The position numbers and the translations under genes are program-made. Below, in pieces: positions 1-48,480 of a stretch of DNA of 64,000 nt (within the stretch, counting starts at the first letter, position 1; every line of letters begins with the position of its first letter). Source of the DNA: a bacterium. GTDB lineage: Bacteria > Armatimonadota > UBA5829. Under the pieces are notes generated by a model. The model saw only the letters and a list, made by a program, of their open reading frames with translations, did not search any database and was not told the origin of the DNA. The stretch is from contig JAJFVF010000019.1 of the NCBI GenBank assembly GCA_021371935.1, positions 87,268 to 151,267 of the forward strand. Reading direction: 5' to 3'.

Positions 1-28
1 TATTCACGTTCCTCGTGAATAATGCGGG
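1..28 (-). repeat. Partial copy of the ~75-80 bp double-hairpin element (hairpin 1 only, cut by window edge)
   Basis: TATTCACGTTCCTCGTGAATAATGCGGG is the reverse complement of the first hairpin in the copies at 22433 and 36994. Confidence 0.7.
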
Positions 29-2176
29 CTAGTCAAATAGGCTTAATGTCTGCTGATTGGCGGGATCCATGTGTTTCTTTGTCGGTGGTTTAGGAAACAA
101 GACATCGAAGTCCTCGCCAAACGCTTCCTTAAGTCGACTTGCGAATTTATAGAGTTTCTCCAGGAGGTAATGTCTATCCTCATCTCCAGCATAGTCACCC
201 GCCAGCCCGATTGAGCCGTCATTTTTCTCATAGATGCTCACATACTGACCGACTTTCATGCCCTTTGCAGCCTGTGCAAGCCGCTTTTTGCCTGTGGAGT
301 GGAAGGTCTTTTCTGTGATCCTTTCTCGCCTGGCAAATTTTTCTATACCGAGCTGACCATTGCTGATTTTTTCAGAGAGTGATTTGTATAGTTCGCCTGC
401 TTTGTCTTTTTCGCCTCGCAGCAGATATTCTGCAGTGCCGGATATGAAATCCAACCCGAACGGCTCATCCGCGCGTGATCTCAAAGCAGAACCTCTAAAT
501 GTCTTCTTGCCGTCGTATGATTCCAGCACATAGTTTTTGATCTTTACCGAGATCATAGCTTTGTAGCGACCGTCATGCGCCAGCCTGATGCCTTCGGGCA
601 GTGCCGAGCCGATGCGTTCGATATATTCGACTTCTTTTTCTTCGCTGTCGATATCATTTGGCGGGCTGAAATATACGCCATCGGTGTCCACTTCCACCAC
701 CATACTTCCCGCCTTTTCAAGTTCCTCGACTATCCGCTTGACCAGTTTCTGACCCGTAGTCGTGACCCTTGCGCCGGCGTCATGATCGTTAAAATTGAAC
801 GGTCCGGCCAGGTAGCCATAGAACGAGTTGATAAGGATTTTGAACGCGCTCTGCAGTCCATCCCAATATGCGTGTTCACGCCCCTGCGACTCTTTTGCCT
901 TGCGTTTGGCCGCCAGTCTCCTCTGCACCAGGTTCGCGAGGGCGGGCAAGAAAATATCCAGAGTATCGTTTTTCGGTTTGACCTTATGTGTGAGCATGAT
1001 ACTCGGATACAGACTCTCCACATCGCACTTGACTATATGCTCGATCACTCCAGCCGTGCGCACCTCCGTGTATCCACCCGGCAGCGTTTTTTGTTCGGAC
1101 TGCTCTGGGATAGCACAGCCCTTGCTGAGATAGTGCCGAATGAAGATGGAGTTGATTTTTTCGCCGGTGCCGGATGTCGCAGCACGCTCATATGTGTCGG
1201 GTATCATCTGAGTCAAATAGAACTCATACGGGCATACTATCCCCGCCAGCAGATCGGTCTCTCTGACATCTTGAGTAGTATACTTTTTGACCCGCTCGGG
1301 GTTGTCATGCCACTCCTGCGCAATCTTGTCGTGAGGGATAATTTCTCTATCGTCTTCCGCAATGCCCAGTGCCTTAGCGGCGGCCTTGAGAGAGTAGCTC
1401 GACAGACTCGCCCGTGACACATCCCACCTCTGCACTGCCAGCAGGGTGTCGATTATGTGCCTGCCATGGATATGAGCCGGGCTGAACGGCCTGGAGTAAT
1501 AGCCTATAGCGCTCTGCTGCTTCTGGCCGAATATAACTTCTGAACCATCGCGTCCGAATGCCAGCCTCACACCTCTATATTTCGCACGAGCCGCCATGTA
1601 AGCCAGGTCGAAGTCATATATGTTGTGGCCTTCTATTATGTCTGGGTCGCGTTCACGCACGCATGAGACAGTATCTCTCAATATCTGTGCTTCATCTCCA
1701 GTGATTAGGGTCTCGAAGCCTCGATTGTCCCTTATAGCGACCATGAATATCTCGTTTTCAGGCTTGTCGGGTGTGAGCGCGAGGGTTTCTATATCGAGCT
1801 GCATGCGGACGACATCGTCGAAATCCATTCCCTTAAAGAGAGTTTGGCCTGTCCTGGTCAGATACTGCTTTGCCGCGGTCGGCATAGCGATATGCGATGC
1901 GTGCGCGTCACGCAGCCAGTATCGTGCGGCGTTATATGAATTGCTGCTGTCGAACTCTGCCAGGAATCTATAGCCGCTGCCGTCAAGCTCTGTCCACTGC
2001 GCGTCAGTGATCTGGTGCTTCTCAGTCGTGAGTATCCAGCGTTTGAACGGCGTCTCGTGCGTTGTCATCGCGCCATCGATTCGTCGATAGATAATGGCGG
2101 TTTCCGTTCCGACTTCCACAGCAACTATTCCTTCAGTCGGGTCGCTGCCGAAAAGGATTTTCTCAACACTGTCCAT
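29..2176 (-). CDS. Family B DNA polymerase with 3'-5' exonuclease domain (715 aa)
   Basis: Translation shows Exo I DIETL and Exo II HNIYDFDLAYM. Polymerase motif A DVESLYPSIM, motif B KILINSFYGYLAG, motif C VVEVDTDGVY. Confidence 0.8.
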   Translation of the reverse strand: MDSVEKILFGSDPTEGIVAVEVGTETAIIYRRIDGAMTTHETPFKRWILTTEKHQITDAQWTELDGSGYRFLAEFDSSNSYNAARYWLRDAHASHIAMPTAAKQYLTRTGQTLFKGMDFDDVVRMQLDIETLALTPDKPENEIFMVAIRDNRGFETLITGDEAQILRDTVSCVRERDPDIIEGHNIYDFDLAYMAARAKYRGVRLAFGRDGSEVIFGQKQQSAIGYYSRPFSPAHIHGRHIIDTLLAVQRWDVSRASLSSYSLKAAAKALGIAEDDREIIPHDKIAQEWHDNPERVKKYTTQDVRETDLLAGIVCPYEFYLTQMIPDTYERAATSGTGEKINSIFIRHYLSKGCAIPEQSEQKTLPGGYTEVRTAGVIEHIVKCDVESLYPSIMLTHKVKPKNDTLDIFLPALANLVQRRLAAKRKAKESQGREHAYWDGLQSAFKILINSFYGYLAGPFNFNDHDAGARVTTTGQKLVKRIVEELEKAGSMVVEVDTDGVYFSPPNDIDSEEKEVEYIERIGSALPEGIRLAHDGRYKAMISVKIKNYVLESYDGKKTFRGSALRSRADEPFGLDFISGTAEYLLRGEKDKAGELYKSLSEKISNGQLGIEKFARRERITEKTFHSTGKKRLAQAAKGMKVGQYVSIYEKNDGSIGLAGDYAGDEDRHYLLEKLYKFASRLKEAFGEDFDVLFPKPPTKKHMDPANQQTLSLFD

Positions 2177-17056: not shown

Positions 17057-17275
17057 TTACCTCCGGTACCTGCCAGTTTGAATACCATCAGATGCAAAAA
17101 AGACAGGCACCCAAGATAGGTCCTGTCTCATACTATTGCTATCGATATCAAGTTGTCCGTCGAAGCATCCTGCACCCCGACACCTAACGCACCCGCCTTC
17201 ATTGCGTCCGTCGAGCGATCATCCATCCTGTAGATAAGAATCAGCACATTCAAAGCAATGATTCCTCTGCCATAG

Positions 17276-17347
17276 CCTGGATTATACGCTTCCCGCATAA
17301 TCCAAGTCTCCGAGAACATTATTCACGTTCCTCGTGAATAATGCGGA
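17276..17347 (-). repeat. ~75-80 bp double-hairpin element, copy in reverse orientation
   Basis: CCTGGATTATACGCTTCCCGCATAATCCAAGTCTCCGAGAACATTATTCACGTTCCTCGTGAATAATGCGG. Both hairpins present, the second degenerate. Confidence 0.75.
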
Positions 17348-22432: not shown

Positions 22433-22507
22433 ACCCGCATTATTCACGAGGAACGTGAATAATGCTCTCAGAGACCCGGATGATGCGGTAAGCGCATAAT
22501 CCGGGTA
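22433..22507 (+). repeat. ~75-80 bp double-hairpin element, forward orientation
   Basis: ACCCGCATTATTCACGAGGAACGTGAATAATGC (hairpin 1), then CCCGGATGATGCGGTAAGCGCATAATCCGGG (hairpin 2). Confidence 0.8.
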
Positions 22508-24324: not shown

Positions 24325-24349
24325 GGGAGGGCGAGGCTCCCGCCGAGCC
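24325..24349 (+). repeat. GGGAGGGCGAGGCTCCCGCCGAGCC motif
   Basis: Between tsaD and tRNA-Ala. Confidence 0.55.
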
Positions 24350-26397: not shown

Positions 26398-26422
26398 GGG
26401 AGGGCGAGGCTCCTGCCGAGCC
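26398..26422 (+). repeat. GGGAGGGCGAGGCTCCTGCCGAGCC motif
   Basis: Between convergent pilT and alr. Confidence 0.55.
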
Positions 26423-32447: not shown

Positions 32448-33110
32448 ATGGGTTGGATTGTAGATGCTGTCGAGCTGCTTTCTAAGGGCGGCTATGTGAT
32501 GATCCCGCTGATGATCTGTTCGGTCGTCAGTGTTGCGGTGCTCATCGAGCGCTATTTTAAGATCAGTAAGGCTCAGGCCGACATATCGGATGTCGTCAAG
32601 CGCGCAGAAGATGCGGTTTATGAAGGCAATGCCGAGAAGGCCGTGTCGACGCTGGAGCGAATGGATAACCCGGTCGCGCGAGTACTAATAGCCGGGATAT
32701 GCAACAGACACTTAGGCGAACGCGGAGCCGAGAGGGCGATGGAAGAGCAGGGCACCCGCGAAATATCATCTCTTACGCGCCGCCTGGGTTCGCTGGACAC
32801 GATAATCACTATCGCTCCGCTGCTCGGACTTCTGGGAACTGTTACGGGTATGATCTCGGCTTTTCATGTGATCGCGGCCAAGTCCGGCATCAGCACTCCG
32901 ACTGCTATCACCGGCGGTGTCGCCGAGGCTCTCATTGCCACCGCCACCGGTCTTGCGATAGCCATCTTCACCCTGATCGGCAACAATCATCTCCAGGAGC
33001 GGATCAAGTCGATAGTTGCGGAGATCGAGGCCAGAGGCAACGCAATGGTCAATATCCTTGTCGAGTCGCAGGAGGGTTCCAGAGGTGAAATTAAGCGTAT
33101 ATCAGCCTAA
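32448..33110 (+). CDS. exbB: MotA/TolQ/ExbB proton-channel protein
   Basis: Three TM helices with the conserved C-terminal TGL...A motif. Confidence 0.7.
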   Translation: MGWIVDAVELLSKGGYVMIPLMICSVVSVAVLIERYFKISKAQADISDVVKRAEDAVYEGNAEKAVSTLERMDNPVARVLIAGICNRHLGERGAERAMEEQGTREISSLTRRLGSLDTIITIAPLLGLLGTVTGMISAFHVIAAKSGISTPTAITGGVAEALIATATGLAIAIFTLIGNNHLQERIKSIVAEIEARGNAMVNILVESQEGSRGEIKRISA

Positions 33111-33501
33111 AAAGGCCCGCATCGAAATCGTCCCGATGATCGACACAATCTTTTTCCTGCTTGTGTTTTTTATGATGGCGTCGCTTGCCATGACCACTGC
33201 CAAGGGCATGCCTGTGAACCTGCCTAAGGCTTCTGCCGCGACCGAACGTCCTGTCTGCAAGGTCGTTCTGACCCTGACCCCGACCGGTAACTATTATGTC
33301 GACAAGCAGCAGGTCACATTCAGCCAGATCCAAAATTACTTGAAGATGCGTCTTAAGGACAATCCGGGCGCAGTTGTGGTCATAAACTGCGATAAGGCGC
33401 AGAACTGGGAGAAGGGCATCCAGCTTGCCGACGAGGCCAAACGCGCCGGAGCCAAGTATTTGACCATCGCCACCGAACCCAAACCCGTATCCAACTCATA
33501 A
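33085..33501 (+). CDS. exbD: ExbD/TolR biopolymer transport protein
   Basis: EIVPMIDTIFFLLVFFM signature. GTG start with AGAGGTG Shine-Dalgarno. Overlaps the exbB end. Confidence 0.7.
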   Translation: MKLSVYQPKKARIEIVPMIDTIFFLLVFFMMASLAMTTAKGMPVNLPKASAATERPVCKVVLTLTPTGNYYVDKQQVTFSQIQNYLKMRLKDNPGAVVVINCDKAQNWEKGIQLADEAKRAGAKYLTIATEPKPVSNS

Positions 33502-33506
33502 TTTGT

Positions 33507-34490
33507 ATGAAAGACAAGATACTCACATATGCAATCGCCGCATCGATAGCGGCTCACATACTGGTTATAAGCGTGGTTGGGCACTCTTCCCTAACCAGAC
33601 TCAGCACCGCCTCTGCGGCAGTGCCGACTCCGAAGTTTATCAAGGTTGATTTCGTGGGTGATCCTTCCGAGGCGGTCAAGCCGAAACCTGTCGAGACACC
33701 GAAGTCCGAGCCGGCTGCAAAGCAGACGGAGAGACAATACAAGTCAGAATCTCCCATTTTGCCAAAGCAGACCGCAAAGGTTCCCATTACTTCTATACGT
33801 CCAGCGACCAGACAGCCGATATCTGTTCCCCATACTCCACGCGGGACGGGTCATCAGATGCCTGGTAATCCCGGCGGCAAGCTCAACATAGGTTCGACCA
33901 GCGCTAATGGCGACCTTGGCGGCAACTGGGGAGGGGGCAGCACTCCGGCTGGATGGGTTCCCGGCAGTGATGATGGCAAGGGCAAAGGTTCAGGCAGTGG
34001 AGCAGGGGAAGCTCGGCCTGATCCAGTGAAAAACGCATCCGATGGGCCAGGTACAGCCCCAGCGCCCGCCCCGCGCACTGTGAGCGTACGAATATGCCAT
34101 CAGTCCGGTATGCTGGCAGGTGAATACTGCAAATCAACCGGATTCAGGACCTATATCGAAGGCCGGCAGCCGAGACGAGTCTGCACTCACTGCAAACCCC
34201 CCGAGCATAAATCGCGCCTTGCCGATCAGGCAAATCCGATCCTCATCAGGGATACAAGCGTTTCGGTTCCCGCTTCAGTGGATGAGGGATTGAGTTTGGT
34301 CGTAAAGGTCGAGTATACAGTCACGGATGAAGGTTCAGTATCTGGCGTGAGTGTCATTAAGTCATCCGGCTATCGCGCACTCGATAAGGTGGTCATAAGC
34401 GCCACCTCCAAGCTCAAATATAAACCCGCAGTCCAGGACGGCACTGCCCGCAGTGTGAAGATGACCAGAACCTACAGGATAAACACTTAG
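33507..34490 (+). CDS. TonB-family protein (Pro/Gly-rich linker, TonB C-terminal domain)
   Basis: N-terminal TM anchor, long P/G/S-rich spacer, C-terminal SGYRALDKVVISA...YKPA TonB-like fold. Confidence 0.6.
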   Translation: MKDKILTYAIAASIAAHILVISVVGHSSLTRLSTASAAVPTPKFIKVDFVGDPSEAVKPKPVETPKSEPAAKQTERQYKSESPILPKQTAKVPITSIRPATRQPISVPHTPRGTGHQMPGNPGGKLNIGSTSANGDLGGNWGGGSTPAGWVPGSDDGKGKGSGSGAGEARPDPVKNASDGPGTAPAPAPRTVSVRICHQSGMLAGEYCKSTGFRTYIEGRQPRRVCTHCKPPEHKSRLADQANPILIRDTSVSVPASVDEGLSLVVKVEYTVTDEGSVSGVSVIKSSGYRALDKVVISATSKLKYKPAVQDGTARSVKMTRTYRINT

Positions 34491-34705
34491 TATCTGGCCA
34501 TACAGACAAATTGACGTTTGTGCAAAAACGAACAGAGCTTAGAATTCATATATCTGAGCGTAGATAGTTTTTTGTATCTCAGCAATTCTCTCTTCATACA
34601 CATCATCCAAGACTGCGTGCTACGTCCGCAAATCATTGCCGTTTGTATTATCTCACCAATTTTGTGTTCCGAGTTCACTTTGGAGTGGGAAACAAATTAT
34701 TGGTG

Positions 34706-34734
34706 TTGACAGCTCGGCTGGTTGTGGATAGAAT
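34706..34734 (+). promoter_or_regulatory. Sigma70-like promoter (TTGACA-17-TAGAAT) for fabH
   Basis: Near-consensus hexamers with ideal spacing. Confidence 0.5.
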
Positions 34735-34810
34735 GCGGATGAGGTTTTGATGTTTTTGTTTCTACAGACCTAAATAAATGCTTCAGGGCAACGACACCAA
34801 AAGGAAACAA

Positions 34811-35779
34811 ATGCCAATTCAGATAATCGCAACAGGCAGCTATCTGCCCGAGCTTGTAGCATCCAACAATGATCTTGCGGCTTTTTTGGACACAAATGAC
34901 GAATGGATTCGGACCAGGTCCGGGATCAGCACGAGACATATTGCGACAGACGAAACCACTTCGGAGATGGGTGCGAAAGCTGCGAGTGTGGCAATGCATA
35001 GGAGTGGGCTGAGACCCGAAGATATCGATCTTGTGATATGCGCAACACTCACGCCGGATACGTCAGTGCCCATGACGGCCGCCAACATAAAGAAGGCTTT
35101 AGGGATCGAAAGAGCAGCCGCATTCGACCTAAACGGCAACTGCAGCGGATTTATCTATGCAATTACAGCGGCGGACAGCCTGATGAAAAACTGCGGTTAC
35201 GATCATGCAATAGTTGTCGGTTCGGACACCAACAGCCAGATGCTGGATTGGACGGACAGATCGACCTGTGTGCTTTTTGGTGATGGCGCCGGTGCGGTGG
35301 TTCTGTCGCGCACCGATAAGAGGGGCATCATCACGACGTACTTGGACTGCAAAATCGACTCAGACAATGTGCTGATCTGGCCCAACCGGTTGGATGCGAC
35401 GCCTTTTTGCGATGCTCAACGAACTGAACACACCAAACTTGCGATGCAGGGCAGCAAAGTAATGCGTTTTGTGGTGAAGGCGCTTATAGAGTCAGTGAGG
35501 CAGGTCACCACGGCAGCAAACGTTTCCATAGATGATGTGAAATACATAGTGCCGCACCAGGCAAATCTGCGAATGATCGAGTCGGCGGCAGAGACGATGC
35601 GGCTCGACATGGACAAGTTCTACATCAACATAGACAGGGTAGCCAACACATCGCATGGGACTATCCCGATAGCCCTTGATGAGATGGCAGAAAATAAACT
35701 GCTCGAAAGAGGGGATCTTATTCTGCTTACCGCTTTTGGCGGAGGACTTAGTTCGGGCGCCGTATTGCTGGAGTGGTAA
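34811..35779 (+). CDS. fabH: 3-oxoacyl-[ACP] synthase III
   Basis: Active-site C (NGNCSGFIYA), H (VPHQAN) and N motifs. AGGA Shine-Dalgarno. Confidence 0.85.
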   Translation: MPIQIIATGSYLPELVASNNDLAAFLDTNDEWIRTRSGISTRHIATDETTSEMGAKAASVAMHRSGLRPEDIDLVICATLTPDTSVPMTAANIKKALGIERAAAFDLNGNCSGFIYAITAADSLMKNCGYDHAIVVGSDTNSQMLDWTDRSTCVLFGDGAGAVVLSRTDKRGIITTYLDCKIDSDNVLIWPNRLDATPFCDAQRTEHTKLAMQGSKVMRFVVKALIESVRQVTTAANVSIDDVKYIVPHQANLRMIESAAETMRLDMDKFYINIDRVANTSHGTIPIALDEMAENKLLERGDLILLTAFGGGLSSGAVLLEW

Positions 35780-35801
35780 TGTTCAATCTGATATTGAGCC
35801 A

Positions 35802-36035
35802 TCAATATCTGGAACCAACGCACCCAAAGTCGAGCCCATAATCCTGAAACCCGAGTGCATGGGCTGTGTGCAGTGATGCAATATTTGTGCGGTCCGCACC
35901 CCAGGTGGCTATTTTGCCGTTATCGAGGATGTATTTCACTGCTGCCGATACGGCGCTTTTTGCATATCCCATGCCTCGATATTCAGGCAGTGTCTGGATA
36001 GTAGGGTCCCATACGACATCAGACAGCGGCTTCAC
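35802..36035 (-). pseudogene. Truncated duplicate of the 3' end of the GNAT-like gene at 37067-37777
   Basis: The 77 aa align with the C-terminal 77 aa of the 236-aa protein at about 90 percent identity. The underlying DNA at 35822-36050 matches 37090-37320. No N-terminal part is present. Confidence 0.7.
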
Positions 36036-36221
36036 GCCCGCCTACGAGACCGGTTCGCCCGCATAGTTAGCAAGTCTCTTTCGCATGTGTGACACATTCA
36101 GCTCAACGGAGCCACAGTGTTGACATTATCCCGGTATAAATAACAGTTGCCAAGTGTTCAAGCTGATGTTATATTGTACAACTGGAAGTGTATGCTTGCC
36201 GGATGGGAAGGGAGAGAGATT

Positions 36222-36878
36222 ATGTATACAAGGTTGTGTTTACTGCTCATAGGTTTATTGTTTGTGTGTCTGCCGGTGACTGCTGCGACATATACCCAAT
36301 CTTTTACAGACCTCTGGAATGTAGGCAATGGAATATCCATTGTCAGTTGCTCAGGCACCCACTTTGCAAATACCGATATTTTGGATATGTTCGGCGCCAA
36401 TGGCAGTTACTATGTGCCAGAGAGAGGCAATACTCTATTTCGCGACGGGCAGCCACAAAACTATCGCCACTTTATTGAGTGGCAGATGCCAGGCAGCGTG
36501 ACGGTAGGTCGAATAGCGCTGTGGGCAGCCCACGATGGTGGTTCATGCGGGCGTTCTTTCAACAGATTCACACTAGAGGCTTGGAACAGCGCTGCGGGCG
36601 GATATGTTACTGTTTATGACACGCAAGTCGGTCTGCCATATACCTGGGTCGAAGGCAATGAAGGGCTTGTCGTTAACAAAACATTCGACACCCCGTTTAC
36701 CTCCAGCCTGTTCAGAGCCAGCTTCTACCAGGCGACCACCATACCGTATGCGTCCGGTCCCAGGATATACGAGCTTGACGCTTTTACAGCTCCGCCGTCT
36801 GTTCCTGAGTGGGGCTCTCTTGCTTTGGCCCTGCTGGGTTTGGTGCCTGCCGCACGTTTTGCCAGACGTAAAAAGTAA
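36222..36878 (+). CDS. PEP-CTERM sorting-domain secreted protein
   Basis: Signal peptide MYTRLCLLLIGLLFVCLPVTAA. C-terminus VPEWGSLALALLGLVPAARFARRKK has a PEP-like motif, TM helix and basic tail. Confidence 0.7.
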   Translation: MYTRLCLLLIGLLFVCLPVTAATYTQSFTDLWNVGNGISIVSCSGTHFANTDILDMFGANGSYYVPERGNTLFRDGQPQNYRHFIEWQMPGSVTVGRIALWAAHDGGSCGRSFNRFTLEAWNSAAGGYVTVYDTQVGLPYTWVEGNEGLVVNKTFDTPFTSSLFRASFYQATTIPYASGPRIYELDAFTAPPSVPEWGSLALALLGLVPAARFARRKK

Positions 36879-36936
36879 TCAGTTCGATTCTGCCGGGTAA
36901 GATGGTAATATCCGGCAGACATAACACTTTTGTGCT

Positions 36937-36961
36937 GGGAGGGCTTACCTCCTGCCGAGCC
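36937..36961 (+). repeat. GGGAGGGCGAGGCTCCTGCCGAGCC-family motif (degenerate copy)
   Basis: GGGAGGGCTTACCTCCTGCCGAGCC. Confidence 0.5.
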
Positions 36962-36993
36962 ATGTTACGTCATCTGAGGGTATCGATTTCTTA

Positions 36994-37069
36994 ACCCGCA
37001 TTATTCACGAGAAACGTGAATAATGCTCTTGGAGACCCGGATTATGCGGGAAGCGCATAATCCGGGCTA
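36994..37069 (+). repeat. ~75-80 bp double-hairpin element, forward orientation
   Basis: ACCCGCATTATTCACGAGAAACGTGAATAATGC plus CCCGGATTATGCGGGAAGCGCATAATCCGGG. Confidence 0.8.
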
Positions 37070-37777
37070 ACCACACTGTATGCAGACGCACCCGAAGTCA
37101 AGCCCATAATCCTGAAACCCGAGTGCATGAGCCGTGCGCAGTGATGCGATATTGGTACGGTCCGCGCCCCAGGTGGCTATTTTGCCGTTATCGAGGATGT
37201 ATTTCACTGCTGCCGATACGGCGCTTTTTGCATGTCCCATGCCTCGATATTCCGAGAGAGTCTGCACCGTCAGGTCCCAGCCGACACCAGACAGTGGCTT
37301 CACTCCTGCCCACGAGACCACTCTGCCGTCCAAAATCTGACCGAATACCCTGCCTCCCCATTTGTTGTAGATACCGACAGCAATTTCGTCCATGTCGGTC
37401 ACATCGCGCACGTCGCCATTTGTCTGGTCAACAAAAGTTTCTCTGTCACAGTAGAGTCTGCACCCCTCGAACCAGAACTCAGGCTGTATGACAGGCGTCA
37501 ATGCAGCCTCAAGTGCCCGAGATGCATTTTCGTCAAGTGTTTTTGAGCCGATCAGCGCATTAGCGGCCGCTTCGTATAGATCGGGCAATACTGACACCAC
37601 CGCTCCAGTCCCTTTGCCTATCGAAAAGAGCGCAAGCGGCGCGCCCTTTGCGAACCTTATTCCGGTAATCTTTTCGCATTTGACGACCACCAGCCTGCCC
37701 GAGTTGAGATCATCCGGTGTGCATCCCAGTGCGGACGAGTAAAATTTGTCCAGTTGCATCACTGTATCGTTTGCCAT
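37067..37777 (-). CDS. GNAT-like acetyltransferase-fold protein (C-terminal domain)
   Basis: C-terminal GNAT-like motif EYRGMGHAKSAVSAAVKYILDNG. Last gene of the 37067-42102 operon. Confidence 0.55.
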   Translation of the reverse strand: MANDTVMQLDKFYSSALGCTPDDLNSGRLVVVKCEKITGIRFAKGAPLALFSIGKGTGAVVSVLPDLYEAAANALIGSKTLDENASRALEAALTPVIQPEFWFEGCRLYCDRETFVDQTNGDVRDVTDMDEIAVGIYNKWGGRVFGQILDGRVVSWAGVKPLSGVGWDLTVQTLSEYRGMGHAKSAVSAAVKYILDNGKIATWGADRTNIASLRTAHALGFQDYGLDFGCVCIQCG

Positions 37778-37778
37778 G

Positions 37779-38807
37779 TCAATCCCTATACCACATCCTG
37801 TGCATCAGGTCGGCCATAGTCAATAGGTCGTGGAGGTTATGTGTCAATATCTGCGCTATCTTGCATGCGTCGCCCGTCCGCACGAAGTCATCATATGCTC
37901 TTGGAATCTCTGCCCCAGGTATATCGTCCTCGCGAGACCGCCCGCACACCATCTGTTCAAGCGTCTGCAGCCTGCAGTTGGGCAGATCACGCTTATATAT
38001 GCGTCTTGCCTCATGGAGCATATCGAGATGAAACTCAGGCACCGGCAGCTTTATGCCTTTTGCAGTTGCTCTATTTGCCAGAAACGGCATATCGAAGCAC
38101 TTGCCGTTGAATGTCACGACCATCCTGGCATCTTTTAGCCTATGGGCAAATGCCGAGACTATACCGGTCTCCTCGGAGTAATCGCGCGCGAAATATTGTC
38201 TGAATGTCAGACCATTGGAGGTGCACTCCATTGTCCCGATCAGGAACACGGGCGTCATGTTCAGCCCGGTGGTTTCGAGGTCCAGAAAGATGATTTCTTC
38301 AGGAGATATCTTCTCGGATTTGCATGCGCGAGCAAATCTCTCGACGGCTTCTCCGTCAGGATATCCAGTCAGCCGGACGAACCTTCTATACATCACATCC
38401 GCGCTCGCATCCAGTTCGACCGCAGGCTTTTCGATCAGATAATACCCGTCTCCCGACACAGACTGTGCCTCGATACCTTCTATCACATCCTCCAGAACTA
38501 CATTGCCTTTAGTGCTCATAGATTCGTCAAAGGGCGCTGTCAAAGTCTGGATAGCGTGGGGGATTTCTGTTTCTTTGATAGTCGGGGGTATTCCTGCCCC
38601 CGACTCCTCTTCTCGGGCATTCTTGCCCGCAGAGCCTTTGCAATTTGGGTCTTTCTCAGCATCCTGAGCTTTGTCTAGGGATGCTGACAATATCCCGACA
38701 GCTGTGGAAATTCCTACCTCTTTCTTTTCCAGAGTAGACAGGGAATTTCTCATAGGCTGCCCGTTCATAGCCTCTATCCGGCTTTTGAGGTCACCTGGAG
38801 CCATCAT
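37779..38807 (-). CDS. RNase-H-like 3'-5' exonuclease (YprB/PolB-exo-like, COG3359-type)
   Basis: IIFLDLETTGL (exo I-like) and FNGKCFDMPFL motifs. The start overlaps the upstream stop in an ATGA coupling. The N-terminal ~96 aa are low-complexity and the DNA there carries a GC-hairpin REP copy in frame. Alternative start at Met97 (about 38519). Confidence 0.6.
   Translation of the reverse strand: MMAPGDLKSRIEAMNGQPMRNSLSTLEKKEVGISTAVGILSASLDKAQDAEKDPNCKGSAGKNAREEESGAGIPPTIKETEIPHAIQTLTAPFDESMSTKGNVVLEDVIEGIEAQSVSGDGYYLIEKPAVELDASADVMYRRFVRLTGYPDGEAVERFARACKSEKISPEEIIFLDLETTGLNMTPVFLIGTMECTSNGLTFRQYFARDYSEETGIVSAFAHRLKDARMVVTFNGKCFDMPFLANRATAKGIKLPVPEFHLDMLHEARRIYKRDLPNCRLQTLEQMVCGRSREDDIPGAEIPRAYDDFVRTGDACKIAQILTHNLHDLLTMADLMHRMWYRD
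38581..38604 (+). repeat. GC-rich hairpin repeat GTCGGGGGTATTCCTGCCCCCGAC
   Basis: Read directly. Lies inside the 5' part of the exonuclease ORF, with a degenerate second copy at about 38612-38630. Confidence 0.7.
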
Positions 38808-40297
38808 GATTCCTCATATTTCTCACCGGTCCTCAGGCAAATCTCAGCCTTGGCGAGCTGCCTGCCTATATACATCGCGTGATTGATGTCCGATATCGCG
38901 CAGTCGCGGTTGATCTCATGCTGAACCCTCTCAGCTTTTGCTGATCGATACTCATGCAAAAGTATGCCATTATTGTCCATATGACGGACTACAATCAGCC
39001 CATCTTCCAGGCTCACCATAAACTGCCCGTTGTCGTCCATATCCAGCGAGAAGCCCTTGGAGTTTGCCACGCGCACAGCGGCGTCATATTTTGCCGGGTC
39101 CACGCTTATCGAGTGACTGATGACCGTCAGCGGCCCGACCGGAATGCCCGTTTCTTGCGAGACAATCTGCTGAGCCTTCATAAGGCCATAAACATTCTTG
39201 AGCCATGCATCCAGAGCATTGTGTGTGCGGTATGTCGCGGTGAGGGTCAACTGATCGTCGAACACCCTGAAAAAAAGCGAGACCATACATGGCGCATCAT
39301 CCGCATCGATATCGTGATGGCTGTCCCACAGCGCCAGGTAACAGTCTCTGTCCTGAGGGTTGGCTTTCAGCCGCATGGCGAATTTTTTGAGTGCATCAAA
39401 CCCGAAATACTCCCGAATCCTGTTTCCGTATGTATATGAATGCTCATCAGGCAGCGGACCCAGCAGCATGTCGTGTTGATACTGCATAAGTTCCGAGCGT
39501 GAGAAGTTATACTTATCTAGACTCTCCTCGTCATCATCCTGAGGATGCCGGAGAACCACTCGCACATTCTGAAGCTCCTGCCTGTCACCCTTGCGCAGGT
39601 GAACCAGGTGACCGAACCGCACCAGTCTGAATATCAGTTCGCGCCAGGCCTCAAGTGGAGTGTCCTTGACGATATTGTGGTTTTGCGGCAGACTGGGATA
39701 GTTGCTGACCTCCACCTCAGGCAGCTCGACCTCTACCCGGTCACCGACAATCGTCTCGCCCAGGCTGAACGAGTGTATAACCCTACACAAGTTATCGCGT
39801 GATTCATGATCTCGTAAGTCGCCAAGATGGACTATCCGCGGCACCACCTCGAAGTCATCGGGCGATACCAGGTCGTCTATTATCCGGGTCCTGCCTTTGA
39901 TCCGGGTCACAGTCTCACCCAGGCTGATGGATTTTTCCAACCCGTCATGAAAGAATGCCATCAAGTCCTCAGCTGACCCGGATTTGTCCGCGCCGCATAT
40001 AATGAGATATCTTATCTGCGGGTTATAGAGCAGGTTTCTGAGCAGATGGGGGATTCCGTTGCCGAAGAGGTTGCCCATAACGGCGATTTTGGACGTTTCA
40101 GGAGCAGTGTCTATGCCCAAGTTTGTCAAAGTTTGCTCGACAAACTCTATCTTGCTCCAGAGAGTAATAATCCCGATGCGCCCCCTGGGGTTCACAACTT
40201 TCAGCTTGCTGGCGTAGTGCAGGGGGATAAAATCCATCTCGCCGTCTTGCGCATCATTTCGCTGCATTTGTAAAATGACCTCTTGGTCCCCCGACAT
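38804..40297 (-). CDS. Two-domain protein with C-terminal thymidylate-synthase/dCMP-hydroxymethylase fold
   Basis: C-terminal half aligns by eye to ThyA: WRELIFRLVRFGH ~ IHELLWFLQGDTN; CYLALWDSHHD...APCMVSLFFRV ~ RIIVSAWNVGEL...APCHAFFQFYV with catalytic Cys in P-C context; LTLTATYRTHNAL..KNVYG ~ LSCQLYQRSCD..FNIAS. N-terminal ~230 aa are an unknown domain. Start is ambiguous: Met at 40297, 40267 or 40237. Confidence 0.6.
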   Translation of the reverse strand: MSGDQEVILQMQRNDAQDGEMDFIPLHYASKLKVVNPRGRIGIITLWSKIEFVEQTLTNLGIDTAPETSKIAVMGNLFGNGIPHLLRNLLYNPQIRYLIICGADKSGSAEDLMAFFHDGLEKSISLGETVTRIKGRTRIIDDLVSPDDFEVVPRIVHLGDLRDHESRDNLCRVIHSFSLGETIVGDRVEVELPEVEVSNYPSLPQNHNIVKDTPLEAWRELIFRLVRFGHLVHLRKGDRQELQNVRVVLRHPQDDDEESLDKYNFSRSELMQYQHDMLLGPLPDEHSYTYGNRIREYFGFDALKKFAMRLKANPQDRDCYLALWDSHHDIDADDAPCMVSLFFRVFDDQLTLTATYRTHNALDAWLKNVYGLMKAQQIVSQETGIPVGPLTVISHSISVDPAKYDAAVRVANSKGFSLDMDDNGQFMVSLEDGLIVVRHMDNNGILLHEYRSAKAERVQHEINRDCAISDINHAMYIGRQLAKAEICLRTGEKYEES

Positions 40298-40874
40298 TCT
40301 GGAAACCGGTATTGAAGTCCCTGTATAGCGACTTGTAGTTCTTAATACGATGCCACTTCTTAATATATCCCTCAGGCAGGTCCTGCACGATCTCGACGTC
40401 GTCCCAACCATTCACCAACGGAAACGCATAATACGGGTACTTCGCGGGCACGTTCTTTGCATAAACCACCTGTATCGGCGAGCGCTCCATCCGCGCCAGA
40501 TACACACGATGCATGCCGTCGTTGAGTATCTTAACCGTGCTGTCGTCTGCTTCGTGCGATTCTTCTATTACAGGCGGAAGGACATCGATCGGGTCGTCAT
40601 AGTCCTTGAGCCAGATCGTCGCATAACCGTCGAGCTTGAACAGATCGACCCCATGCTCCTTAAGTGCCCATCGCAAATCGCGGACTTTCATAATCTCGCA
40701 TGTAAGCACATACCTCTGCGCAGGCGCGATCTCGTCAGTATGCAGAGTCGGTATTGTAATGTCAGCTTCAACGTATGGCAGGTCATCCGGGTGTGTAAGC
40801 ATGCTGACTCTGCGCATATTTTCCAGCAGTTCGTCGATATTATGTCTTTGGACTTTGACTATCTCCATTCTCAT
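40254..40874 (-). CDS. Hypothetical protein with ParB/sulfiredoxin-like motif
   Basis: VKILNDGMHRVYLAR resembles the DGHHR core of ParB/Srx-fold nucleases. Confidence 0.5.
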   Translation of the reverse strand: MRMEIVKVQRHNIDELLENMRRVSMLTHPDDLPYVEADITIPTLHTDEIAPAQRYVLTCEIMKVRDLRWALKEHGVDLFKLDGYATIWLKDYDDPIDVLPPVIEESHEADDSTVKILNDGMHRVYLARMERSPIQVVYAKNVPAKYPYYAFPLVNGWDDVEIVQDLPEGYIKKWHRIKNYKSLYRDFNTGFQNVGGPRGHFTNAAK

Positions 40875-40982: not shown

Positions 40983-41660
40983 TTATATACCAATCACCGC
41001 TGATGCCACCTGCGAAATATCTGCAGTTGTAGCAGTCGGCACGAGACAATGCCCGTTCAGAATCTTTATTATATATTCAGCCTCACGATCGGGTCTGGCA
41101 AGCACCCATATTGCTTTCATGCCCATTTCGAGCGCAGGCCGGATATCGTGAGTATATGTATCACCTATCATAACGCACTCACCCGGTTCCACGCCCAGTT
41201 CTTTCACCACAAGCCCAAAATTGTATTTATCGGGTTTGCGCGATCCCGACAAACAGCTCAGCACAATGGCATCGGATGCTGCCACGACCTCCGGCAGCGC
41301 CTTTGTGACGCTTTCAAAGTAAGGGTTCCAGATGTCCGAGAGCAGCCCGATCATCATCCCGCGAGCCTTGAGAGCCAGCACGCTCTCTTTGGCTCCGTCG
41401 AGAGCCTGTGCAGCGCATATTTGCGACTGCCACAACTCGTGGATTTCAGAGACGGCATAATCGCTGAGCCGTCCATATTCGCATGCGAGCGCATCACAGA
41501 CCTGCCCGGCTGATTTCAGGTCGTTTTTCATTATTATATCGCTCACCCTTGTCGGCGAGGAGCCTTCGATCAGTTGTGCGATAATTTTGTTTGGGGCGAT
41601 AGGCGGGCCTGTGACCAGCGTTGCGCCGATATCGAAAATAGCAGCCTTAACCGACGTCAT
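40983..41660 (-). CDS. HAD-superfamily hydrolase (phosphatase)
   Basis: Motif I AIFDIGATL (DxG nucleophile), motif II SD, motif III K...GD. Confidence 0.65.
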   Translation of the reverse strand: MTSVKAAIFDIGATLVTGPPIAPNKIIAQLIEGSSPTRVSDIIMKNDLKSAGQVCDALACEYGRLSDYAVSEIHELWQSQICAAQALDGAKESVLALKARGMMIGLLSDIWNPYFESVTKALPEVVAASDAIVLSCLSGSRKPDKYNFGLVVKELGVEPGECVMIGDTYTHDIRPALEMGMKAIWVLARPDREAEYIIKILNGHCLVPTATTADISQVASAVIGI

Positions 41661-42102
41661 TTGGCCACTCTACAACTTCCACTCCGCACTTTTCGAGCAG
41701 ACGTATACCGTTCGATCCGCCCTTGTTGTCGCGCTTGACCACACAGCGTGCAATGCCTGAGGATATCATCAGTTTTGCGCATGTAATGCACACGTCTGCA
41801 TTCACATATAGAGTTGCGCCCTCAAGGGCAAGGCCGCGTTTAGCGCACTGGCATATGGCGTTTTGCTCAGCGTGCACACACACCTTAAACTCTTCAGTCC
41901 CGGCCTTGTCTTTAAGGCAGATGCCGGTATCGCAGCAGTGTTCATGCCCGCTGGGAACGCCGTTATAGCCGTGCGAGAGTATTCTGTGGTCGAAAGTTAT
42001 CACAGCCCCAACATGCTTTCTAAGGCAGGTCGAACGCCTCGCGATGATATCCACCACTTCCATATAGACTTGATCGAAAGATGGACGGTCAGACACACTC
42101 AT
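41647..42102 (-). CDS. Deoxycytidylate (dCMP) deaminase, ComEB-type
   Basis: Zinc motif VHAEQNAI and PC..CAK pattern (ADVCITCAKLMISSGI), RSTC near the N-terminus. First gene of the minus-strand operon. Confidence 0.7.
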   Translation of the reverse strand: MSVSDRPSFDQVYMEVVDIIARRSTCLRKHVGAVITFDHRILSHGYNGVPSGHEHCCDTGICLKDKAGTEEFKVCVHAEQNAICQCAKRGLALEGATLYVNADVCITCAKLMISSGIARCVVKRDNKGGSNGIRLLEKCGVEVVEWPNDVG

Positions 42103-42371: not shown

Positions 42372-43826
42372 ATGAAAAACTTGCGCATAATAATTTGCGG
42401 CATGATTGTCTTGATCCTTGGTGGTCTGAGTGGAAGCGCGTTTGCGGCCAGTCCAACCACAAAGGAATTGGCTGCAAAGATTGCCGACCAGCAGACGATC
42501 ATGGATACCATCTGGGTAATGGTCACGGCATTCCTCGTCTTCTGGATGCAAGCGGGGTTCGCCTATGTTGAGGGTGGACTGACCAGGGCAAAGAACACGA
42601 ACAACATTATGATGAAGAACCTCATGGACTTTTGTGTTGGTTCACTTGCCTATTGGGTGATCGGTTTCGGCCTGATGTTCGGAGCCGGCAATGCTTTTGT
42701 AGGCAAGAGCGGTTTTTTCCTTATTGAGAAGACGGCGGATACGTTTGCGAGTCTTTCCTGGACCACTGTCCCGCTATATGCGAAGTTCATGTTCCAGCTT
42801 GTATTTGCAGCCACGGCGGCGACAATAGTTTCCGGAGCCATGGCCGAGCGCACCAAGTTCAATGCTTATTTGATTTACAGTGCGGTTATCTCAGCATTCA
42901 TATATCCGGTAGTCGGTCACTGGATCTGGGGCGGCGGCTGGCTTGCAAGCCTCGGTTTCTGGGATTTTGCCGGATCGACTGTAGTCCACTCCACAGGTGC
43001 CTGGATGGCTCTTGTGGGAGCATGGTTCCTTGGTCCAAGAATCGGCAAGTTCCGCAAGAACGGCAAGGCCAATGCAATCCCGGGTCATAATTTGCCGATG
43101 GCTGCTCTTGGTGTATTCATATTATGGCTTGGATGGTTCGGGTTCAACCCTGGTTCCACGATGGCCGCCAACGCTTCGATCGCACACATCGCCACCACGA
43201 CGAACCTTGCCGCTGCAATTGGCGCAATCACTGCAATGATAACTGCGTGGATATTGTTCAAAAAGCCTGATGTGTCCATGACTTTGAACGGGGCGCTGGC
43301 CGGGCTTGTAGCCATCACGGCTCCGTGTGCATTCGTCAGCCCTGCAAGTTCGATAGTGATTGGCGGTATAGCGGGCATCCTTGTTGTCCTGGCTGTATTG
43401 TTCTTTGATAAGATCCATCTGGACGACCCAGTGGGCGCAGTATCGGTTCACGGTGTTTGCGGTGCGTTCGGAACGCTGTCTTTGGGCCTATTCGCACAGG
43501 AGCATTTCCAACCCGGCACCACGGGCAACGGCCTCTTCTTTGGCGGCGGTTCAAGCCTGCTGCTGCATCAGGCTATTGGTGTTGTGTCAGTGTTTGGTTT
43601 CGTCGCATTGTGCGGTGTGATCCTGTTTGGATTGCTCAAGTCGACTGTCGGTCTGCGTGTAACTACTGAGGAAGAGCTCGATGGTCTTGATATCGGTGAG
43701 CACGGCATGTCTGCATATCCCGATTTTGAGATGGTTGAGACGGGTGCCGGTGCCGGGTCCGCCGGTGGTCCTTCCAAGCCGGGTTCAGCCGAGCCTATTG
43801 GCAAGCTTGTCGAAGATAAGTGTTGA
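42372..43826 (+). CDS. amt: Ammonium transporter
   Basis: Signal peptide plus 11 TM helices, conserved twin-His region and C-terminal tail. AGGAGG Shine-Dalgarno. Confidence 0.85.
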   Translation: MKNLRIIICGMIVLILGGLSGSAFAASPTTKELAAKIADQQTIMDTIWVMVTAFLVFWMQAGFAYVEGGLTRAKNTNNIMMKNLMDFCVGSLAYWVIGFGLMFGAGNAFVGKSGFFLIEKTADTFASLSWTTVPLYAKFMFQLVFAATAATIVSGAMAERTKFNAYLIYSAVISAFIYPVVGHWIWGGGWLASLGFWDFAGSTVVHSTGAWMALVGAWFLGPRIGKFRKNGKANAIPGHNLPMAALGVFILWLGWFGFNPGSTMAANASIAHIATTTNLAAAIGAITAMITAWILFKKPDVSMTLNGALAGLVAITAPCAFVSPASSIVIGGIAGILVVLAVLFFDKIHLDDPVGAVSVHGVCGAFGTLSLGLFAQEHFQPGTTGNGLFFGGGSSLLLHQAIGVVSVFGFVALCGVILFGLLKSTVGLRVTTEEELDGLDIGEHGMSAYPDFEMVETGAGAGSAGGPSKPGSAEPIGKLVEDKC

Positions 43827-44034: not shown

Positions 44035-44580
44035 ATGAATGAATCAAACACACCGACAACGTGCGCAAGACATCCGAAAACACGGACAAATCTGCGGTGT
44101 TCGGCTTGCGACACCTATATATGCCCGAAGTGTATGGTGCAGACTCCGGTAGGGATGAAATGTCCGAGCTGCGCATCACAAAAGCAGGGCACTCTTTTCA
44201 GACCGACTCCTGCCCAGATCACCGCAGCATCGGTGGTTGGGCTGATGATGGGTATCATCACTGGCTGGGCAGTCGAGTTCTGTGGGTTTTATATGATTTT
44301 CATAGCGTTTGCTTTGGGCGGTTTTGCGGGCGAACTGATATTACGTGCCTGCGGACGAAGACGAGGCAGGCTTATGGAGATCATTACGGGTGTCTCAATA
44401 ATAATTGGAGCGCTTGGCGGCAGGATTCTTATGGCTGCCATACTTATATTCTCTGCAAATGTGCGTCCACCTTTGGGTGCTTTGAATGTAATAATTGACC
44501 TTGTGCTGCCGGTTCCCATCCCACTCATTGCATTGGTCTTTGCTGTGGCCGGCGCAATCAGCAGAATAAGGTATTTATAA
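44035..44580 (+). CDS. Zinc-ribbon (4 Cys pairs) membrane protein, hypothetical
   Basis: CARHP...CSAC...CPKC...CPSC N-terminus followed by 4 TM helices. Confidence 0.5.
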   Translation: MNESNTPTTCARHPKTRTNLRCSACDTYICPKCMVQTPVGMKCPSCASQKQGTLFRPTPAQITAASVVGLMMGIITGWAVEFCGFYMIFIAFALGGFAGELILRACGRRRGRLMEIITGVSIIIGALGGRILMAAILIFSANVRPPLGALNVIIDLVLPVPIPLIALVFAVAGAISRIRYL

Positions 44581-48390: not shown

Positions 48391-48415
48391 GGGAGGGCGA
48401 ATGTCCTCCTGAGCC
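48391..48415 (+). repeat. GGGAGGGCGAGGCTCCTGCCGAGCC-family motif
   Basis: GGGAGGGCGAATGTCCTCCTGAGCC, followed by hairpins CTGAGCCGTTGCTCAG and GACTCGGCAGGAGTC. In the ilvB-ilvN spacer. Confidence 0.5.
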
Positions 48416-48480
48416 GTTGCTCAGATAAAAATGACTCGGCAGGAGTCTTGCCTTTCCAATGACAGCTGAGGACTTAAATT

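Follow-up and report, generated by a model that had tools for sequence, protein, structure and literature searches.

The window analysed here, a 64,000-nucleotide stretch of DNA from a bacterium of the phylum Armatimonadota, contains a minus-strand nucleotide-metabolism operon whose last gene encodes a GNAT acetyltransferase, and past the 3' end of that gene lie a gene for a secreted protein, a headless second copy of the GNAT 3' end and a stand-alone fabH (Table 1). Along the gene strand the order is the intact GNAT gene (37777-37067), the cargo (37066-36052) and the fragment (36051-35802), with the fragment co-oriented with the intact gene and 22 nt between its stop codon and that of fabH, which ends at 35779. 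The intact protein scores above the curated cut-offs for both PF12746 (30.2 bits against 26) and PF00583 (26.1 bits against 20.7); the fragment also scores with these families (36.3 and 26.2 bits), its matches being confined to the C-terminal part. The PDB gave remote matches only, to GNAT folds, PADLOC found no defence-system match for the GNAT or the cargo gene, and exact-protein look-ups with the window GNAT, P0001 and the 77-aa fragment returned nothing on record. The upstream copy falls within a 77-codon ORF (35802-36035) that has a GTG start, and at the W161 codon, where the fragment reads TAG, the G of TGG is present in 7 of 8 outgroup sequences.

Table 1. Features between fabH and the end of the nucleotide-metabolism operon, in window coordinates
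Feature	Position	Strand	Remarks
Stand-alone fabH (KAS III)	34811..35779	+	TIGR00747, 350 bits; convergent with the orphan fragment
Orphan GNAT 3' fragment (copy A)	35818..36051	-	Family codons 159-231; own 4-codon tail and stop, down to 35802
67-nt identical tract	35899..35965		Equals 37167-37233; 0/67 differences
5' segment of the fragment	35966..36051	-	20% divergent from intact gene 37234-37319
In-frame TAG (W161 to stop)	36042-36044	-	Within the homologous stretch, just upstream of the GTG of the 77-codon ORF
79-nt stretch	36052..36130		Between the putative illegitimate junction and the cargo promoter block; see similarity search in text
Cargo promoter block	36131..36176	+	-35 TTGCCA 36147-36152, 17-nt spacer, -10 TATATT 36170-36175
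Cargo gene, 218-aa secreted protein with PEP-CTERM-like tail	36222..36878	+	VPEW, hydrophobic stretch, RRKK
Spacer between convergent cargo and GNAT genes	36879..36994		Hairpin and 24-nt motif
MITE-like double hairpin (copy B)	36995..37066		72 nt; inverted ends CCCGCATTAT / ATAATCCGGG, flanks TTAA / CTAA
Intact GNAT acetyltransferase gene, 236 aa	37067..37777	-	Last gene of the minus-strand operon
Copy B of the repeat	37086..37319	-	Codons 159-231 of the intact GNAT gene

MAFFT, BLASTN and a repeat finder agree on a direct repeat, 35818-36051 against 37086-37319, that runs for 234 nt with 26 mismatches (88.9% identity) and no indels; the copies lie 1268 nt apart, start to start, and the match has a BLAST E-value of 3.6e-78 in a search within the window. 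The first-pass annotation had placed the two copies at 35822-36050 and 37090-37320 with about 90% identity, which is correct to within 4 nt and close to the aligned value, and it had rightly recognised the downstream copy as the 3' end of the intact GNAT gene and the upstream one as a headless fragment after fabH, with a PEP-CTERM gene, a motif and a double hairpin between them (located in the present analysis at 36222-36878, 36937 and 36995-37066, respectively). On its left the repeat stops exactly where the conserved protein sequence does (...GLDFGCV), beyond which tails vary across the family, and the fragment keeps a short tail typical of the family together with its own stop codon. Its 5' side is sharp: identity falls to background within 1-9 nt of 36051, homology is lost upstream of 36051-36059, and the 36051/36052 junction carries no shared sequence. 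The 36052-36130 stretch resembles neither the intact gene nor any of the loci retrieved, nor anything else in the window, and elsewhere in the window there is no further GNAT-like sequence.

The cargo gene appears to have a promoter of its own, with a 10/12 match to the sigma-70 consensus, in a block that is 85% identical to the block upstream of a homologue in Armatimonadetes UBA5829 (L015 9899-9945). Homologues of the cargo protein are few, three only among 5.8 billion proteins searched. Two of these, P0173 and P0174, end in VPEP and pass TIGR02595 (20.6 and 24.3 bits; cut-off 16 bits), whereas the window protein, whose tail reads VPEW-GSLALALLGLVPAARFA-RRKK, gives no match to that model even at E<=10. 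The cargo protein is homologous to PEP-CTERM proteins but bears a variant motif; the name "PEP-CTERM gene" given to it earlier is sound as to homology, and the window protein itself fails the model. The UBA5829 homologue, 74% identical, sits on a separate contig from that genome's operon, between unrelated genes.

The spacer beyond the cargo gene (fold -37.9 kcal/mol, z=-2.3) holds a hairpin, CTGCCGG...CCGGCAG (36890-36918), and a 24-nt motif, GGGAGGGC...GCCGAGCC, at 36937-36961; the window contains 4-5 members of this motif's family, where 0.04 would be expected. The double hairpin, which folds at -43.5 kcal/mol (z=-9.3), abuts the TAG stop of the intact GNAT gene (37067-37069), and its inverted ends are complementary at 9/10 positions. 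Three full copies and one cut at the window start occur in the 64 kb, with flanks TTAA/CTAA, TACA/TACA and CTAG/CTAT, one pair only being an exact duplicate. Rfam has no family for the hairpins. Judged by these features the double hairpin is a MITE-like element that inserted independently at the stop codon of GNAT, where it would have changed TAA to TAG and left the protein unchanged. The suggestion that it forms part of the footprint of the duplication thus does not stand for a multi-copy element with inverted ends, even though it does lie, as had been noted, about 20 nt from the duplicate boundary (17-20 nt from 37086). We considered the element as the duplication junction and rejected this; the element is dispersed and has inverted ends of its own, and the 3' boundary of the repeat is merely the end of conserved coding. 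The double hairpin was found in none of the 19 related loci searched for it and the GGGAGGGC motif in none of 42, and therefore neither is of use for tracing a donor.

An arrangement of this kind might be an assembly artefact, that is, a chimera of two co-occurring strains joined at sequence common to both. The sequence comes from a MAG ('bacterium', locus tags LLG46_), and the 67-nt tract common to the two copies could confuse a de Bruijn graph. However, strains wrongly joined at k-mers they have in common would yield a single hybrid copy and not two copies flanking unique DNA, and the junction at 36051/36052 offers no such shared sequence. The window GNAT is 100% identical to NCBI MCE5324212 and MEN6613702, and two NCBI submissions carry exactly these proteins in this order. 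Run SRR15035646 supplies two independent Logan contigs that are 100% identical to window 33081-35928 and 35936-37020, jointly covering the copy-specific flanks and the junction; the first (L043) spans TonB and fabH into the copy-A-specific 3' segment, and the second (L044) runs from a copy-A-specific segment through the junction as far as the PEP-CTERM gene. The only breaks in these contigs fall within the 67-nt identical tract and within the repeated hairpin. We consider a chimera scarcely credible.

The differences between the two copies are those of coding sequences under constraint. Eighteen of the 26 mismatches are at codon position 3, and by the NG86 method dN/dS is about 0.13 with dS about 0.39; even with neutrality on only one branch (omega 0.55), the chance that no more than 8 of 26 changes would be replacements is 0.001. 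When changes are polarised with outgroups, L013, L001 and L014 among them, the intact-gene branch receives 4 replacement and about 8 silent changes, and the fragment branch has as many derived changes, about 4 replacement (the stop included) and about 8 silent; neutrality of the fragment branch is rejected at P=0.003-0.03, these and the mosaic statistics below being based on 234 nt and 26 differences. Both branches thus show purifying selection, and the copies were functional alleles or orthologues while they diverged, ahead of the event proposed below.

The divergence is also unevenly distributed. From the 5' end of the fragment the copies differ at 17/86, 0/67 and 9/81 sites in three successive segments, over which the distances to outgroups are 14-18, 10-19 and 11-14. 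Over the 86 nt at the 5' end, the distance between the copies therefore equals that of either from L013 or L001 (14-18/86), and the idea that they are one another's closest relatives throughout their length fails there. Over the central 67 nt, where outgroup pairs differ at 10-19 sites, the copies are identical (longest-run permutation P=0.0016), which indicates a tract of gene conversion. Overall identity of 89% is inflated because this tract is identical, and it constitutes no evidence for a recent duplication.

These patterns bear directly on the model with which the locus was first described, namely a recent segmental duplication in situ during insertion of the PEP-CTERM gene, with the headless copy decaying ever since. 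The direct-repeat geometry (A-X-A'), the 89% overall identity and the nonsense codon in the fragment are what it would produce. A copy that was headless from birth should nevertheless drift neutrally, and the fragment branch, with its excess of silent changes, did not; derived changes are as many in the intact gene as in the fragment, the first segment is divergent at an interspecies level, and 234 nt have accumulated no indel. We regard this model as highly unlikely. The low dN/dS, the third-position bias and the species-level distance of the 5' 86 nt speak against the duplication being recent; what survives of the proposal that it brought the PEP-CTERM gene beside the operon is that the position of this gene is not ancestral, its UBA5829 homologue lying elsewhere and related GNAT loci having no such gene. 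Because the differences are mostly silent, the derived changes equal and the 5' divergence at species level, the fragment came from a different allele that had long been functional.

Comparison with relatives points to a locus that varies from genome to genome. The closest relative found in genome, metagenome and protein collections (L013) has a GNAT protein 83% identical to that of the window; contig profile searches recovered no relatives with a single-protein query and 9 loci (<=70% identity) with an alignment query, and a metagenome scan added 20 loci (<=65% identity). All of about 35 related GNAT loci have a single GNAT copy, each with a different gene 3' of it, and in none is there a second copy or fragment, a fabH or a PEP-CTERM gene near the GNAT gene. 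L001 is syntenic on both outer sides, with the operon on one and TonB/ExbD/ExbB/QueC/FemAB on the other, and has TPR+SIMPL between and no fabH in the region. A partial convergent ORF downstream of GNAT in L013 was considered and is not fabH. The closest homologue of the window fabH (76%) lies in an unrelated context. Searches of the genome, metagenome and protein collections found neither a pre-event arrangement nor a donor genome, and the plasmid collection had no match to 35700-37400.

It is conceivable that the two copies are old tandem paralogues, the whole GNAT gene having been duplicated in an ancestor, both copies having functioned for long and one having later been cut to its last 77 codons. 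Truncation by deletion or by insertion of the PEP-CTERM cassette would leave the same signature of low dN/dS on both branches, and species-level divergence in the first segment followed by conversion between neighbours would also be expected. The first segment of the fragment, however, falls inside the clade of close orthologues (14/86 to L001) and not outside it; given this and the single-copy state of the relatives, paralogy needs several independent losses and long redundancy. We find this scenario unlikely, if deserving of a hearing.

We lean instead, as the somewhat more probable course of events though by no means an assured one, towards the upstream copy being the orphaned 3' end of a second, divergent GNAT allele, stranded by recombination in the topology of C-terminal displacement. 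Such an allele might derive from another Armatimonadota lineage or be the displaced resident one; it would not be a copy of the present gene. Recombination would have taken place where synteny breaks, directly 3' of the gene that ends the operon, by one homologous crossover and one illegitimate join at 36051-36059, i.e., homology-facilitated illegitimate recombination, and its product would be the order observed: intact gene, cargo (the PEP-CTERM-like gene with its own promoter), displaced 3' end and fabH. We infer this mechanism, and either copy could be the resident one, the event having run in one direction or the other; the operon-side GNAT might have arrived with the PEP-CTERM gene or, alternatively, a segment of fabH and GNAT tail might have arrived anchored on the TonB side. 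Afterwards intrachromosomal gene conversion would have made the central 67 nt identical, the orphan would have gained its TAG stop and a few radical replacements (G to V, L to P, R to H), and the 72-nt double hairpin would have inserted at the intact gene's stop codon.

There are precedents for a displacement of this sort. Orphan 3' ends at Rhs, CDI and T6SS effector-immunity loci have been explained as C-terminal displacement and attributed to homology-facilitated illegitimate recombination (PMC5361080). As at those loci, we see an intact gene with a new 3' end, cargo and a displaced old 3' fragment in the same orientation, along with a sharp 5' end of homology, allelic divergence and a locus that varies between genomes. 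Unlike those loci, the gene concerned is a GNAT ending a nucleotide-metabolism operon and not a polymorphic toxin, no immunity gene is present, and there is one orphan and no array, with no evident selective rationale. [quoted passage not shown] These cases, also ones of homology-facilitated illegitimate recombination, similarly combine one homologous anchor with one illegitimate join and leave non-homologous cargo beside a diverged homologous segment, but they are laboratory events with known donors. The fragment also resembles ordinary gene remnants (pseudogene fragments) homogenised by conversion, in that it is truncated, contains a nonsense codon and matches the functional copy perfectly over a central tract. 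It differs from them in that most of its divergence predates inactivation, and therefore it did not arise by decay of a copy of the gene beside it.

Given the conversion tract, one might ask whether the arrangement serves a function, either with the fragment as a silent cassette that donates to the expressed GNAT or with the direct repeats reversibly excising the PEP-CTERM gene. Identity over 67 nt is long enough for RecA-dependent recombination. A crossover within the tract would yield an intact hybrid ORF, because the TAG sits 5' of the tract, and the resulting 1268-nt deletion would restore a single GNAT gene beside fabH. Against this, there is only one cassette, the arrangement is conserved in no relative, a cytoplasmic acetyltransferase has no evident reason to vary, and the contigs available showed no deletion variant. 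A functional arrangement is very improbable, and it would be just as surprising if the fragment were kept as a silent donor and the 234-nt repeats acted as a switch varying the C-terminal third of the acetyltransferase. Were this nonetheless so, recombination in the 67-nt tract would remove the gene for the surface protein and leave one hybrid GNAT again, and the locus would represent a module of programmed variation outside the usual toxin and pilin contexts.

The displaced allele tail that we favour is most likely non-functional, and the locus is an ordinary genome scar; the 77-codon ORF should accordingly be annotated as a gene remnant and not as a small acetyltransferase. The site immediately 3' of this conserved Armatimonadota nucleotide-metabolism operon is a recombination hot spot, where each lineage compared has different cargo, examples being fabH, a PEP-CTERM-like surface protein, TPR+SIMPL and YjbQ. 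On the reading preferred here, exchange with rather distant relatives (DNA divergence of about 20%), followed by gene conversion, would occur in this poorly known phylum. The direct repeats themselves make assembly breaks foreseeable at the locus, and possibly also deletion of the surface-protein gene.

The repeat described in the first-pass annotation is a single ungapped direct repeat of 234 nt with 26 mismatches (88.9% identity) and a spacing of 1268 nt, on which MAFFT, BLASTN and a repeat finder concur (E=3.6e-78 when the window is compared with itself). Copy B, on the minus strand, comprises codons 159-231 of an intact 236-aa ORF that matches the GNAT families PF12746 and PF00583 above the Pfam cut-offs, and copy A lies within a 77-codon ORF matched to those families in the C-terminal part only, its stop codon 22 nt from the end of fabH; the ORFs and Pfam matches thus bear out the intact-gene 3' end and the headless fragment of that annotation. 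The GNAT homology of copy A reaches five codons past the GTG of the 77-codon ORF, and within this homology there is an in-frame TAG where relatives carry Trp. Lacking the N-terminal two-thirds of the fold and interrupted by a stop codon within the homology, the orphan fragment is most likely inert.

Two NCBI submissions hold exactly the same fabH, PEP-CTERM-like and GNAT proteins in the same order, under consecutive accessions (MCE5324209/211/212 and MEN6613699/701/702). Two Logan contigs from run SRR15035646 (L043 and L044) also match the window at 100%, and they break at exactly the two repeated sequences, as expected from a real repeat. A chimeric join at shared k-mers was rejected, as it would yield one hybrid copy, not two.

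The A/B differences are spread unevenly across the repeat, and the 67-site identical run is improbable under a permutation of mismatches that respects codon position (P=0.0016). The simplest reading of these sequences is that the two GNAT alleles truly diverge by close to 20%, an interspecies level, and that a gene-conversion tract later made their centre uniform, raising overall identity to 89%. This identical tract could support deletion of the 1268-nt interval.

Coordinates of the repeat, its segments and neighbouring features in the window
Feature	Position	Strand	Remarks
fabH	34811-35779
77-codon ORF	35802-36035
Copy A	35818-36051
In-frame TAG	36042-36044		inside copy A homology
Copy B	37086-37319	minus
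First 86 nt (gene-strand order)	A 35966-36051; B 37234-37319		A vs B 17/86 (20%); A or B vs L013/L001 (other species) 14-18/86
Next 67 nt	A 35899-35965; B 37167-37233		A vs B 0/67; A or B vs L013/L001 10-12/67; L013 vs L001 19/67
Last 81 nt	A 35818-35898; B 37086-37166		A vs B 9/81; A or B vs L013/L001 12-14/81
Logan contig L043	33081-35928		TonB, fabH, copy-A-specific 3' segment; stops inside identical tract
Logan contig L044	35936-37020		starts in identical tract; crosses copy-A-specific 5' segment, 36051/36052 junction, PEP-CTERM-like gene; ends in first hairpin
Predicted promoter block, 46 nt	36131-36176		includes 10/12 sigma-70 match
PEP-CTERM-like gene	36222-36878	plus
Double-hairpin element, 72 nt	36995-37066
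Double-hairpin, further copies	about 22434-22505; 1-32		second cut by window start
Double-hairpin, inverted copy	17273-17346	minus
GNAT acetyltransferase	37067-37777	minus	operon gene
RNase_H_2-family (DEDD-type) exonuclease	37779-38807	minus	operon gene
Thymidylate-synthase-like protein, MtrA-like and pterin-binding (DUF4346) domains, 535 aa	38804-40411	minus	operon gene
ParB-CE protein (PF24392)	40254-40874	minus	operon gene
HAD hydrolase	40983-41660	minus	operon gene
dCMP deaminase	41647-42102	minus	operon gene
Ammonium transporter	42372-43826
ORF 44035	44035-44580
GGGAGGGC-N4-5-(C)TCCYGCCGAGCC motif	24325-24349; 26398-26422; 36937-36961; 48391-48415	plus
Motif, degenerate copy	48433-48456	minus

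The 26 differences fall 3, 5 and 18 at codon positions 1, 2 and 3, giving dN=0.051, dS=0.39 and dN/dS=0.13 by Nei-Gojobori counting. Replacements account for 8.5 of the 26, as compared to the ~62% expected had the headless fragment been neutral since the split and the intact gene constrained throughout (P about 0.001). Polarisation with orthologues from L013, L001-3, L014 and L005-7 as outgroups places about four replacement changes (W->stop, G->V, L->P, R->H) and about eight silent ones on the fragment branch, and four (D->G, I->V, P->S, Y->H) and about eight on the intact-gene branch; the functional gene has thus changed as much as the fragment, for which neutrality is rejected (P=0.003-0.03). 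These counts indicate that purifying selection acted on the fragment lineage through most of its separate history. From its four replacement changes we infer at most roughly 2% neutral change since inactivation, so the truncation may be fairly recent, though both sequences are old.

The two ends of the repeat appear to differ in kind. On the 5' side of the fragment, homology runs out no more than a few bases from 36051 (some residual similarity persists, to 36059 at most) and the window holds no further GNAT-like sequence beyond this junction, a pattern that points to an illegitimate junction. On the 3' side, similarity ends exactly after the conserved ...GFQDYGLDFGCV, beyond which every family member has a short unrelated tail of 2-14 residues. 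As the fragment keeps its own tail (GSRY) and stop codon, the intact GNAT ending in CIQCG, this boundary marks the end of constraint, not a breakpoint.

The intact GNAT gene is the last of a minus-strand operon whose six genes recur in identical order in at least four Armatimonadota MAGs (L001, L004, L006 and L014), with parts in four more (L008, L013, L028 and L039). L001 (GCA_039679645.1) is syntenic on its two outer sides, through the operon and through TonB/ExbD/ExbB/QueC/FemAB respectively; its GNAT-TonB interval holds genes for a 1228-aa TPR protein and a SIMPL protein, where the window has the hairpin, PEP-CTERM-like gene, GNAT fragment and fabH, and the gene 3' of GNAT differs again in every other relative. 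None of about 35 GNAT-homologue loci has a second GNAT copy or fragment, or a nearby fabH or PEP-CTERM-like gene; this comparison did not identify the ancestral arrangement. At the operon's other end, the ORF 44035 homologue of L001 directly adjoins the deaminase gene, from which the window's ammonium transporter gene separates it, a second insertion/deletion difference.

The PEP-CTERM-like protein (218 aa) carries a signal peptide, and its C-terminal tail consists of VPEW, a hydrophobic stretch and RRKK. Only three homologues were found in a collection of 5.8 billion proteins: the two distant ones, with VPEP, pass TIGR02595, whereas the window protein and its 74% UBA5829 homologue, with VPEW, do not. 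In UBA5829 the homologue and the operon are on different contigs; its neighbours there are a GFO/IDH/MocA oxidoreductase and a 4HBT thioesterase, as compared to an AP endonuclease and a PfkB kinase in a third lineage. DNA similarity to UBA5829 spans the ORF and the promoter block; the 79 nt separating that block from the 36051/36052 junction have no match. fabH is also non-syntenic, its best homologue (76%) following a 2-oxoacid dehydrogenase E1 gene. This stand-alone KAS III gene sits between TonB and the orphan fragment, and Clostridiaceae is the name given for several of its homologues at 65-66% identity. Rather than the housekeeping member of a fab cluster, it is probably accessory or acquired.

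On the gene strand the order is intact GNAT, PEP-CTERM-like gene, displaced homologous 3' end, as in the Rhs, CDI and T6SS effector loci for which "C-terminal displacement" has been described and attributed to homology-facilitated illegitimate recombination (PMC5361080). Given this geometry, the abrupt junction, the divergence of the alleles under selection and the hypervariability of the site, the locus appears to match that pattern; it is an instance of an already known type of recombination scar. The operon-side allele and the PEP-CTERM-like gene might have arrived together, displacing the resident GNAT 3' end; alternatively, TonB-side sequence, fabH and a GNAT tail might have arrived as a segment anchored on the other side. 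The data at hand do not separate the two. The main rival, a tandem GNAT paralogue pair with later truncation, is less parsimonious, since none of the about 35 related loci has two copies and the unconverted segment of the fragment groups within close orthologues. Of the recent insertion/duplication first proposed to have brought the PEP-CTERM gene next to the operon, then, the insertion footprint stands; a recent duplication is at odds with the selection on both branches and the mosaic.

The double hairpin, originally counted in that footprint, is incidental to it: it has its own inverted-repeat ends (CCCGCATTAT / ATAATCCGGG), does not form the repeat junction and looks like an independent MITE-like insertion. 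Its two 12-13-bp stems fold at -43.5 kcal/mol (z=-9.3), its copies have TA-containing 4-nt flanks (TTAA/CTAA, TACA/TACA, CTAG/CTAT), and it matches no Rfam family and is absent from the 19 related loci searched. As excising the element and one flank restores ...TGT GGT TAA, it would have inserted at the GNAT stop codon, turning TAA to TAG and leaving the protein unchanged. The cut copy at position 1 of the window is immediately adjacent to the TAG stop codon of ORF 29..2176.

The operon could encode an unusual thymidylate or modified-pyrimidine pathway; PADLOC returned no system match for it. With 113.9 bits, the thymidylate-synthase-like protein falls short of the 174.55-bit cut-off for methanogen-type ThyA. 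Its longest ORF overlaps that of the ParB-CE gene by 158 nt (40254-40411), and as the product is called at 487-497 aa in relatives, the true start is probably further downstream.

On the metagenome contig ERZ1026800 NODE-65385 (L042, 905-1003; coverage very low), the last approximately 35 residues (WGCDRDGEASLCVARSVGFQDYAFDFGCVEG) of a 141-aa ORF match the GNAT C-terminus and the remainder has no GNAT match; this may be a further case of a GNAT tail left stranded or fused. Finally, the 24-25-nt GGGAGGGC...TCCYGCCGAGCC motif has 4-5 copies in the window against 0.04 expected and was found in none of 42 related loci. The plus-strand copies all follow a gene on the plus strand, 12-70 nt past its stop codon, and the stem GGGAG/CTCCC is conserved as loops vary; the motif may represent a terminator or a REP-like element specific to this lineage.
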